DNA of 64,000 nucleotides from Armatimonadota bacterium (lineage in GTDB: Bacteria > Armatimonadota > UBA5829): assembly GCA_050948905.1 (NCBI GenBank), contig JBMNES010000001.1, positions 2,272,083-2,336,082 on the forward strand. The letters run 5' to 3'. The position numbers were made by a program, and so were the translations under genes. Shown here in pieces: positions 54,293-55,865 of this stretch; position 1 is the stretch's first letter; each line of letters opens with the position of its first letter. A model generated the notes under the pieces. The model searched no databases. It was not told the origin of the DNA and was given only the letters and a program-made list of their open reading frames with translations.

Positions 54293-54371
54293 TTTTTGTC
54301 GTCAACCCCACAAACATTTTCACAAAAGAGCTGGCTTGTCTATCGATCAAGGTATCAGCCTCAATTATAAG

Positions 54372-54400
54372 TTGCTTCTGTGATTTCTAATTGGTAAAAT
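54372..54400 (+). promoter_or_regulatory. Sigma-70-like promoter of the island operon (TTGCTT, 17 nt spacer, TAAAAT)
   Basis: ttgcttctgtgatttctaattggtaaaat read directly, about 45 nt upstream of the island's first ATG. GAGGGG/GGAGAG RBS before the ATG at 54448. Confidence 0.45.
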
Positions 54401-54447
54401 GTCTTACTCCTCTGTTGCTCGTATATGTTTGAGGGGAGAGGGCAATT

Positions 54448-55158
54448 ATGAGCCGGGCATATAACATTTTTTGTGATGAGAGTTGCCATTTAGAAAATGA
54501 CCAGCAATCTGTAATGGTTTTAGGTGCGGTATGGTGTCCGACAGACAAGGTTAGCGAAAGTGCCCGGAAACTACGAGAGATAAAGCATCGTCATCATCTC
54601 AGCCCAGATTTCGAGATCAAGTGGACTAAGGTGTCGCCAGCAAAGCTAGACTTTTATCTTGATCTTCTGGATTATTTCTTTGATGATGACGATCTCCATT
54701 TTCGGGCATTGGTTGTGTCAGACAAGTCCAAACTGTGCCATCGAGCCTTTTGTCAGACTCACGATAGCTGGTACTACAAAATGTTGTTCGAGATGTTGAA
54801 AGTGCTGTTGACACCCAACGACACATTCAATATATATCTTGATATTAAAGATTCTCGTAGTGCCGATAAAGTCAGGATGCTGCACGAAGTTCTCTGCAAT
54901 AACCTCTACGACTTTAGAAGAGAAATTATTGGCAAGGTTCAAAATGTCCGATCTCACGAAGTCCAGCACGTTCAACTCGTCGATTTGTTAGTTGGTGCAG
55001 TGAGTTATCTTAATCGAGGCTTGGCGGGTAACTCAGCAAAGATTGCATTTATTGAAAAGATGAGGCAGCGGTCGTCATATTCATTGACTAAGACTACTTT
55101 ATTGCGTGAGGACAAGGTAAATTTGCTCATATGGGAGCCCGCCGAGGTGCAAACCTGA
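54448..55158 (+). CDS. Island protein 1: DUF3800-like (recalled resemblance only) protein with an N-terminal CDESCH motif
   Basis: The local GC is clearly lower than in flanking genes. MSRAYNIFCDESCHLENDQQSVMVLGAVWCP.. resembles the DESG-type N-terminus of DUF3800 (predicted RNase-H-like fold) as I remember it. Not verified. Confidence 0.6.
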   Translation: MSRAYNIFCDESCHLENDQQSVMVLGAVWCPTDKVSESARKLREIKHRHHLSPDFEIKWTKVSPAKLDFYLDLLDYFFDDDDLHFRALVVSDKSKLCHRAFCQTHDSWYYKMLFEMLKVLLTPNDTFNIYLDIKDSRSADKVRMLHEVLCNNLYDFRREIIGKVQNVRSHEVQHVQLVDLLVGAVSYLNRGLAGNSAKIAFIEKMRQRSSYSLTKTTLLREDKVNLLIWEPAEVQT

Positions 55159-55649
55159 TGCATCCTGATTGGCTGCCTGATCTAATACTCTTGGATGATT
55201 ACGATGGTGACTGGCATAGCTATATTGAAGTTGTATACGACTATTTTTGTAGAGATTTTGTATCGTCAAAACCGGCTTTCGAAGACAAAAGGTTCGGTCT
55301 AAAGCGACATCCAGAGCTTGAGGGCAAAGAGGCCACATTTTGGCACGTAACAAGCCAGGGTAGAGATGAATCAGAACGCGTTCCAGACCTTCGTCGTTGT
55401 GAGCGTATCAGATGGCTACGCCCGATGATTGAGGCGACTGCACATTCTAAGGTCAGGTGTTGGCGAAATAAAAGAAAAGCCAATGAGGAGAGGGTTGTAA
55501 TTGCACTTGAGGACTTCAGCTTCGTAGTGATCCTTGCAGACCGGGGCGATTATGTCTTGCTATGGACGGCTTACTGTGTCGATCACGAGTCGCGAAGAGA
55601 AAAGCTGCTGAAAGATTATAAAGAATATGTCAAGAACCAAAAAGGCTGA
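55158..55649 (+). CDS. Island protein 2: hypothetical basic protein (about 163 aa), translationally coupled to protein 1 (TGATG overlap)
   Basis: ATG at 55158 shares its A with the upstream TGA. Sequence MHPDWLPDLILLDDYDGDWHSYIEVVYDYF..VVILADRGDYVLLWTAYCVDHESRREKLLKDYKEY. No family recognised. Confidence 0.55.
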   Translation: MHPDWLPDLILLDDYDGDWHSYIEVVYDYFCRDFVSSKPAFEDKRFGLKRHPELEGKEATFWHVTSQGRDESERVPDLRRCERIRWLRPMIEATAHSKVRCWRNKRKANEERVVIALEDFSFVVILADRGDYVLLWTAYCVDHESRREKLLKDYKEYVKNQKG

Positions 55650-55673
55650 TGCCGCTCTGTGAAGAGCGGCATC
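55648..55673. terminator. Strong hairpin at the end of the island operon (11-bp stem); the U-tract is better on the minus strand, so it may be bidirectional
   Basis: gatgccgctct-gtga-agagcggcatc overlaps the stop of island gene 2. It is preceded on the plus strand by aaaaagg, which gives a U-run on the minus strand. Confidence 0.4.
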
Positions 55674-55828
55674 GTTACTCCTTCCACACATGGTGGATGA
55701 GTTCTTAGATATCTACATTTCTATTATGCCCAAAAAAAACTGAAAAGTCAACCAAAAAATACCTCCAGCACAATGCTACGTTTAAGGCACACACATTAAC
55801 TGAAGCATTTCCGCGTTCTTCTTTAACA

Positions 55829-55865
55829 CAACAAAAACAGGGAGGAGCCAAAACGCTACTCCCTG
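55829..55865 (-). terminator. Rho-independent terminator of the peroxiredoxin gene (minus strand)
   Basis: Minus-strand cagggag-(14 nt)-ctccctg followed by uuuuuguuguguu, about 30 nt after the prx stop. Confidence 0.6.

Follow-up and report, generated by a model that had tools for sequence, protein, structure and literature searches.

We analysed a block of DNA that lies between a tRNA-Cys gene and a peroxiredoxin gene in a 64,000-nucleotide (nt) stretch of an Armatimonadota genome (assembly GCA_050948905.1, contig JBMNES010000001.1, positions 2,272,083 to 2,336,082; hereafter the window). Positions 54313-55822 of the window form a discrete, exchangeable cassette of 1510 base pairs (bp) that holds two protein genes, here called A and B, and a small RNA gene (Table 1). 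A and B share one base within the sequence TGATG, an arrangement indicative of translational coupling. A prediction made earlier from the sequence alone (the original prediction) had described this block as an AT-rich island of about 1.5 kb that follows the end of tRNA-Cys at 54292 and carries a self-contained unit of two genes joined by a 1-nt overlap. The island and both genes are real, but the unit has a third part, which is the conserved small RNA gene on the opposite strand. GC content is 0.433 (43.3%) inside the cassette and 0.528 in the rest of the window; windowed values run at 0.42-0.475 over 54200-55800 and at approximately 0.50-0.57 in the flanks. Thus, the low-GC block was read correctly, while the 55-60% GC given for its surroundings was too high and the dip amounts to about 10 points. 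The promoter proposed for the A-B operon is plausible by eye but falls below the thresholds of a consensus promoter scan.

The borders of the cassette were defined by alignment with a sister genome (GCA_964494345.1; locus L011, contig CAZBSI010000004.1) that we reached through a look-up of the peroxiredoxin protein. The flanks of the two genomes are 92-94% identical; homology ends at 54312 and restarts at 55823, which places the cassette edges at 54312|54313 and 55822|55823. Since these breakpoints fall within 20-45 nt of the coordinates that had been predicted from sequence, the low-GC dip is not due to chance. In the sister genome, the slot from tRNA-Cys to the peroxiredoxin terminator is occupied by a different segment of 1303 bp (45% GC) that encodes the defence protein SoFic (Fic_N+Fic; PADLOC 4e-116). 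The SoFic gene lies at ~8490-9840 in L011 coordinates, and upstream of it are three direct repeats of approximately 35 nt with TGCA..TTATAAT-like units.

Within this Armatimonadota species, at least 23 contigs encode a B protein of identical sequence, and on each of them its gene adjoins the same peroxiredoxin gene. For two strain contigs (L002/L003), alignment to the window starts only at 54246, inside tRNA-Cys, and no intact tRNA was found at the tRNA-Cys site of either. Two different Gabija systems lie upstream of the pair in other strains (GajA/GajB 4e-200/6e-258 and 2e-171/5e-144). These islands, in L013 and L014 (strain contigs SRR19071532_11027 and SRR32329120_907), each include a tyrosine integrase, and a 47-nt repeat of the 3' end of tRNA-Cys (54246-54292) marks their border towards the cassette. 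Their other end, with the intact tRNA and attL, was not seen on the contigs, which stop ~250 nt upstream of mlaE. Given the Gabija and integrase islands at tRNA-Cys and the SoFic gene in the sister slot, tRNA-Cys is an active integration site with alternative defence cargo downstream. We conclude that 54313-55822 is a cassette that has been exchanged horizontally within a strain-variable hotspot for defence genes, in agreement with the horizontal acquisition that had been proposed for it. Within the window, the 3' end of tRNA-Cys is not repeated inside or after the cassette and no integrase adjoins it, as the original prediction had also observed. The cassette itself was accordingly rejected as a tRNA-linked integrative island, which would carry an integrase and a flanking repeat of the tRNA 3' end.

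Table 1. Coordinates of the cassette genes and adjoining features in the window
Feature	Position	Strand	Details
tRNA-Gly(ccc)	54139-54213		ARAGORN + Rfam
tRNA-Cys(gca)	54218-54292	+	ARAGORN; Rfam tRNA 63.8 bits; borders variable hotspot
Possible A-B operon promoter	54372-54400	+	TTGCTT-17-TAAAAT, TG upstream of -10; read by eye
Gene A	54448-55158	+	236 amino acids (aa), DUF3800
Gene B	55158-55649	+	163 aa
Small RNA gene	55634-55716	-	Convergent with A-B
Promoter-like site of small RNA	55751-55723	-	TTGACT-17-CATAAT; consensus scan 10/12 matches
Peroxiredoxin gene terminator	55829-55865	-	Sequence reading; outside cassette, kept in sister genome

The PDC-M04/RlfAB protein pair

It had been predicted that the two genes form a defence-type module, although neither protein had been matched to a named system. 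The pair does belong to a candidate defence family, and it has a name. Protein A matches the PADLOC model PDC-M04A (PDLC04353) over residues 1-232 of 236 with E 1.2e-94, and protein B matches PDC-M04B (PDLC04357) over residues 1-162 of 163 with E 2.6e-69, so that both proteins agree with the models nearly end to end and in the same order. Phage P1 carries the same pair as rlfA-rlfB (rapA-rapB in phage P7): RlfA, whose gene is annotated DUF3800, is 50% identical to A, and RlfB of P1 and RapB of P7 are 42% identical to B by tblastn against annotated phages. The cassette pair is a member of this PDC-M04/RlfAB family. PDC-M04 is named as a cassette in a supplementary table of Payne et al. 2024, in which 145 PDC systems, compiled from genes that lie within BREX, DISARM and type I restriction-modification (R-M) loci, are listed as untested (10.1101/2024.01.29.577857). 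The PDC-M04 models comprise two proteins and no RNA part, and the window copy differs from the embedded ones in standing alone. The phage P1 copy has the gene order, the coupling and the downstream opposite-strand RNA of the window copy, from which it differs in its control by the C1 repressor and in its label; it follows repL under a C1 operator and is annotated as 'possibly associated with lytic replication'. The pair is present in phage P1 and in approximately 100 P1-like plasmids, and many prophage-like contigs carry it.

A pattern scan detected B in 438 of approximately 185,000 species genomes, with members in Chloroflexota, Planctomycetota, Acidobacteriota, Proteobacteria, Cyanobacteria, Firmicutes, Bacteroidota and others. 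The family is patchy over many phyla at 50-70% identity, and conservation across phyla is 60-77% for A and B. We analysed the neighbourhoods of the best 80 loci. A lies directly upstream of B in all 77 loci with sequence, mostly with an ATGA overlap. Among the two open reading frames (ORFs) on each side (n=233), the Pfam counts were Methylase_S 23, ResIII 19, HSDR_N 18 and N6_Mtase 12. The pair is located between hsdM/S and hsdR on the same strand in 19 of the 80 loci and adjoins type I R-M genes in 16 more, figures that are approximate because the neighbouring ORFs were called crudely and the R-M genes were assigned by seed searches (phmmer from seed ORFs, together with the Pfam counts). The embedding in type I restriction loci was thus found again independently, consistent with the way in which PDC-M04 had been defined. 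The tRNA-linked location, by comparison, holds for the window locus but not for the family: a tRNA or transfer-messenger RNA gene lies within 10 kb in 10 of 60 loci and is adjacent in none, and we therefore rejected tRNA adjacency as a family trait.

Protein A matches Pfam DUF3800 (PF12686) with E 7.6e-14 and 53.1 bits, where the gathering threshold is 21. Over 28 homologues from several phyla, column identity averages 77%, and the CDESCH motif is invariant, as are D10-E11 and Q176-L-V-D179 (the N-terminal DE and C-terminal QxxD motifs) in the family alignment. The invariant acidic residues are D10, E11, D92, D106, D132, D135, E171 and D179; several further Asp, His, Glu and Gln positions are also invariant. 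The structure of A matches RNase HII, H2A and HIII (an RNase H2/H3-like fold), in agreement with published predictions for DUF3800, for which the literature describes a rearranged active site.

Protein B is small and basic, with many invariant Arg, Lys and His residues. It matched no Pfam or NCBIfam family, and a profile search against all PDB sequences returned nothing at E up to 10, so that membership in the RelE/ParE superfamily was rejected at the level of sequence profiles. The structure model is confident (pLDDT, a per-residue confidence score, of 91.5), and its matches to solved structures are weak. The top Foldseek matches in the PDB are RelE and HigB1 at E >0.1, with RNase toxins as the best group; RelE/ParE and BECR-fold RNases are the nearest folds, and RelE, HigB, YafQ, colicin D and T4 RegB give the best resemblances. 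This RelE/RegB/colicin D-like fold may be taken as a consistent theme, not as proof. B is a stand-alone protein of approximately 160-175 aa in 1602 representatives, among which no domain fusion was found.

The small RNA gene

Alignment of all loci revealed a near-invariant element within 70 nt after B. Read on the strand opposite A-B, it specifies an RNA of approximately 65-80 nt with the form 5'-AGCUCAUCUACCAUGUGUAGAAGGAGUAACGA-[GC-rich hairpin]-CAGCCUUUU. In the window, the RNA consists of hairpin P1 (55677-55702; always written here as hairpin P1, as distinct from phage P1), which contains the near-invariant GAAGGAGUAAC, a linker, and the terminator hairpin P2 (55648-55673), which has 11-bp arms and a 4-nt loop and is followed by a U-tract that overlaps the last codons of B. 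Hairpin P2 had been predicted as the terminal hairpin of the A-B operon. It exists, but given that its U-tract is on the minus strand, it belongs to the convergent small RNA gene and does not simply mark the operon end. The cassette runs 70-100 nt past the element.

The covariance model of this RNA, R1, has its sole match in the window at 55634-55713 on the minus strand (82.9 bits, E 1e-25), and the minimum free energy of the window RNA is -34 kcal/mol (z -4.9). RNAalifold, applied to 77 sequences, gives nine pairs and one internal loop for hairpin P1 and ten pairs for hairpin P2. Standard pairs are formed in 98.8% of cells, changes on both sides occur at 11 pairs, and neither any of 500 shuffles nor any slid register reaches the observed pairing and covariation. 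When the same columns are read on the A-B strand, 83.9% of cells pair, and G-U pairs number 225 on the RNA strand versus 7 on the opposite strand; this asymmetry in pairing and in G-U content fixes the folding strand. Almost all unpaired positions, in loops and linker alike, are invariant. A family promoter is found at a fixed distance, TTGAnTTT-17-(G)ATAnT-6-A|GCUCAU, with at least 8 of 12 matches in 64 of 79 loci compared with 15% of shuffles. The window promoter is placed about 14 nt further upstream than this norm, which would give the RNA a longer 5' leader. Model R1 yields one match per locus, always just after B, in the 79 loci with downstream sequence (78 full and 1 cut by the contig end; two of the 79 are outside the seed alignment). 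The module therefore has three parts, two proteins and one small RNA.

We compared the RNA with Rfam 15 and its 4227 families, none of which matches it (window region at E up to 10, ten RNA loci at E up to 1). These include the DUF3800 families of Rfam (e.g. RF02967, RF02968, RF02969), whose covariance models gave no match; the search did find DUF3800-VII in locus L183 with 69.9 bits. That locus contains both the DUF3800-VII RNA and the new RNA (7661-7747 and 8437-8515), beside a retron-type DUF3800_VII gene that is seemingly frameshifted. DUF3800 RNA motifs I-XI are structured RNAs beside a DUF3800 gene, in either orientation, often followed by a terminator and with a conserved UAA (Weinberg et al. 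2017, PMC5737381). The new RNA shares those traits, and its difference from the motifs is established for those that are represented in Rfam. A literature search with the RNA core sequence returned only primers.

The 5' end of the RNA (first 12 nt AGCUCAUCYRCC) can pair over 6 nt or more with the junction of the A stop and the B start (…GAUGAGC…) in 26 of 75 loci (35%), versus 2.5% of controls. The complement is essentially AUGAGC; it does not extend to all loci, and its signal in the window is weak. A small ORF on the RNA strand, with AAGGAG and then AUG in the window, was rejected because its start codon varies across loci. Action of the RNA solely as a cis-antisense transcript is weakened as a candidate by the invariant sequence and by three viral loci with the RNA on the A-B strand.

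In phage P1, the RNA lies directly after rlfB on the opposite strand (49 bits; L232 3419-3504, ~52901-52986 of NC_005856.1, minus strand). It is unannotated in that record, and a promoter-like TTGAAA-17-TAGATT site, arranged as in the family promoter, lies upstream of it. A blastn search of E. coli complete genomes with the RNA consensus gave no match, and the covariance model was needed for detection of this divergent copy. Among 80 IMG/VR loci found by way of A, B is present in 75 (28-48% identity) and the RNA in 73. The three with the RNA on the same strand as A-B are L248, L249 and L250 (~5273-5373), and their inverted orientation argues for action in trans. Among informative metagenome matches, A/B and the RNA are convergent in 85 of 108; the other 23, which include L117, L208 and L183, do not show this arrangement.

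The RNA also occurs without the pair. A search of IMG/VR viral contigs with a 29-nt degenerate pattern of hairpin P1 gave 11 hits (L101-L111), all of which are full-length model matches that have neither A nor B in the fetched flanks. Their neighbours encode T4-like gp15 and gp19, portal, terminase, neck protein, DNA polymerase and primase, and no recombinase was found near the element inside these phage gene clusters. Isolated phages with the RNA alone include Vibrio phage 1.084.O (L233 2492-2567) and Bacillus phage phi3T (L234 2492-2569) and relatives. In L101 and L106 the RNA begins 5 nt after a tRNA gene, and in L103 it begins ~45 nt after one. Two bacterial loci likewise have the RNA without A or B: it lies beside an ABC-type ATPase gene in L208, and between a DarG gene and hsdR in L117 (1122-1199, 87 bits), where it was either left behind by a cassette replacement or serves other modules too.

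Proposed function and rival explanations

We consider it probable, though far from assured, that the family is a widespread three-part module that acts as a toxin-antitoxin (TA)- or abortive-infection-like system in anti-phage defence or in competition between elements. B would serve as the effector and cleave RNA in the manner of RelE, RegB or colicin D. The small RNA, with its invariant GGAG hairpin, would act as a pseudo-substrate that holds B, or a complex of A and B, inactive, and A might process, sense or destroy RNA or an RNA-DNA hybrid once infection disturbs the cell. Phages with stand-alone copies of the RNA could use them as decoy antidotes, as with pseudo-ToxI. The sequence cut by RegB is GGAG, which the small RNA retains without variation; this, together with the resemblance of B to RegB and RelE, is what suggests a pseudo-substrate.

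Parts of this scheme have counterparts in known systems. ToxIN, a type III TA system, likewise combines a putative endoribonuclease with a small structured RNA, and there too phages carry the RNA alone. ToxI, however, consists of tandem repeats that lie upstream of the toxin gene in the same orientation and undergo processing by the toxin, whereas the module RNA is accompanied by A, is single-copy, lies downstream under its own promoter and is usually convergent; type III membership was rejected on the last four points. Type I membership was also rejected, B being a soluble basic protein of 163 aa, unlike the small hydrophobic peptide toxins of that type, and the RNA being on the same strand in three viral loci; the convergent 3' overlap of the RNA with the end of B is a type I-like feature. 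PrrC occupies the same position between hsdS and hsdR, and the shared logic would be that of a latent RNase held as a back-up once restriction is defeated. PrrC, however, is an anticodon nuclease with an ABC-ATPase that is controlled by the restriction enzyme itself, and A-B have no sequence or domain kinship to it.

Several observations weigh against the proposed function. We found no experiment in the literature on defence, toxicity or RNA binding for any member, and the window pair is a solo pair outside any restriction system. Transcription of the RNA is inferred from the promoter, the terminator and the G-U asymmetry. With its single copy and its own promoter, the RNA is unlike the known RNA antitoxins with their type III repeats, and its extreme conservation exceeds what cis-antisense action would need. 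RNA-only copies beside unrelated bacterial genes (DarG, ABC-type ATPase) may point to an autonomous role or to a remnant left after exchange. The mechanism is the weakest step.

Among the rival explanations, one that we regard as possible but unlikely is a plasmid or phage addiction (TA) module, built of the same components with the same chemistry, whose selected role would be to stabilize the mobile DNA or restriction operon in which it resides and not to guard against phage. The presence of the pair in phage P1, P1-like plasmids and prophage-like contigs would fit such a module, as would the tightly coupled genes with a separate RNA gene and the location inside restriction operons, themselves addictive elements. 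RNA alone in lytic-type phages is more easily explained as counter-defence, however, and the window cassette is chromosomal and has no mobile backbone; addiction and defence are also not exclusive, and many systems do both. Decidedly unlikely is an RNA-scaffolded or RNA-guided nuclease, in which A, through its RNase H fold, binds the small RNA as a ribonucleoprotein (cf. TnpB, IscB) with B as an accessory. The RNA has no variable guide segment, its unpaired positions being nearly all invariant; A is just 236 aa long; and B, which is never missing from the PDC-M04 subfamily, shows the same degree of conservation as A.

An accessory replication function, as annotated for rlfA/rlfB of phage P1 and for PHROG 16230 ('replication protein'), is improbable. 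Although the phage P1 pair follows repL and a C1 operator, and an RNase H-like enzyme could process primers, the annotation says just 'possibly associated', and both rlfA and rlfB are dispensable for phage growth in a CRISPR interference screen (PMC10695390). P1-like plasmids have the pair swapped for other cargo, toxin cargo included (PMC6906374), and most copies are chromosomal with no replicon nearby, many of them inside type I restriction operons. It is very improbable that the element after B is a DNA-level site (a recombination or cassette-border site that folds as single-stranded DNA) or a mere bidirectional terminator. The element is indeed at the 3' edge of the cassette and stays in L117 where DarG replaces A-B, and folded single-stranded DNA also tolerates G-T pairs. 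Against this stand a sigma-70 type promoter at a fixed distance on the folding strand, the U-tract after hairpin P2, a loop and linker invariance beyond what a terminator needs, the occurrence in phage gene clusters with no recombinase nearby, and the continuation of the window cassette past the element. Finally, that these are native housekeeping genes whose low GC arose by chance or composition has next to no probability. All 23 sampled same-species contigs with the exact B have the pair at this position, but the sister-genome comparison contradicts this explanation, the slot there holding SoFic in place of the pair; moreover, the family is patchy, and neither protein has a housekeeping annotation.

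A more specific version of the defence reading, which we offer as a doubtful conjecture, is that RlfAB/PDC-M04 constitutes a new RNA-antidote class of abortive infection. B would be a RelE/RegB-like endoribonuclease acting at GGAG (Shine-Dalgarno) sites or on tRNA, with the small RNA as its GGAG-bearing pseudo-substrate antidote and A removing or remodelling the RNA once infection is sensed, and the phage copies, including those in T4-like phages, would be anti-defence decoys. If this were true, the remaining RNA motifs linked to DUF3800, for which no explanation has been given since 2017, would likewise act as partner RNAs. The pair is already known, both as the defence candidate PDC-M04 and as rlfA/rlfB of phage P1. 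The three-part architecture, the RNA motif, its copy in phage P1 and its stand-alone spread in phages appear to be new, being absent from the literature and libraries searched, in which the 2017 motifs are covered through their Rfam families. A small RNA shared by Armatimonadota and coliphage P1 provides a handle on the roles of DUF3800, which recurs in retrons, in Cas12a2/a3 and Cas13 loci and beside many orphan RNA motifs, as well as on the purpose of rlfA and rlfB and on phage counter-defence by stand-alone RNA copies. Experiments are simple, since phage P1 and E. coli have a full copy of the module.

Neighbouring features

Upstream of the tRNA-Gly/tRNA-Cys genes and of mlaE, we observed strong divergent promoter-like sites at 54047-54075 (+) and 54012-53984 (-), each with 11 of 12 matches. 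On the other side of the cassette, the peroxiredoxin gene (55896-56594, minus strand) has an in-frame TGA at 56343-56345, the position of the expected peroxidatic cysteine, and a GGCAGC-GGUC-GCUGCC hairpin 13 nt downstream of it. Gene callers cut this gene into products of 83 and 145 aa; it probably encodes a selenocysteine-containing protein. Farther downstream, between an ABC exporter gene and a PSP1 gene, 76-nt direct repeats that are 96% identical occur at 59275-59350 and 59429-59503. Several strain contigs have a single copy of this repeat and are missing the intervening 154 nt.

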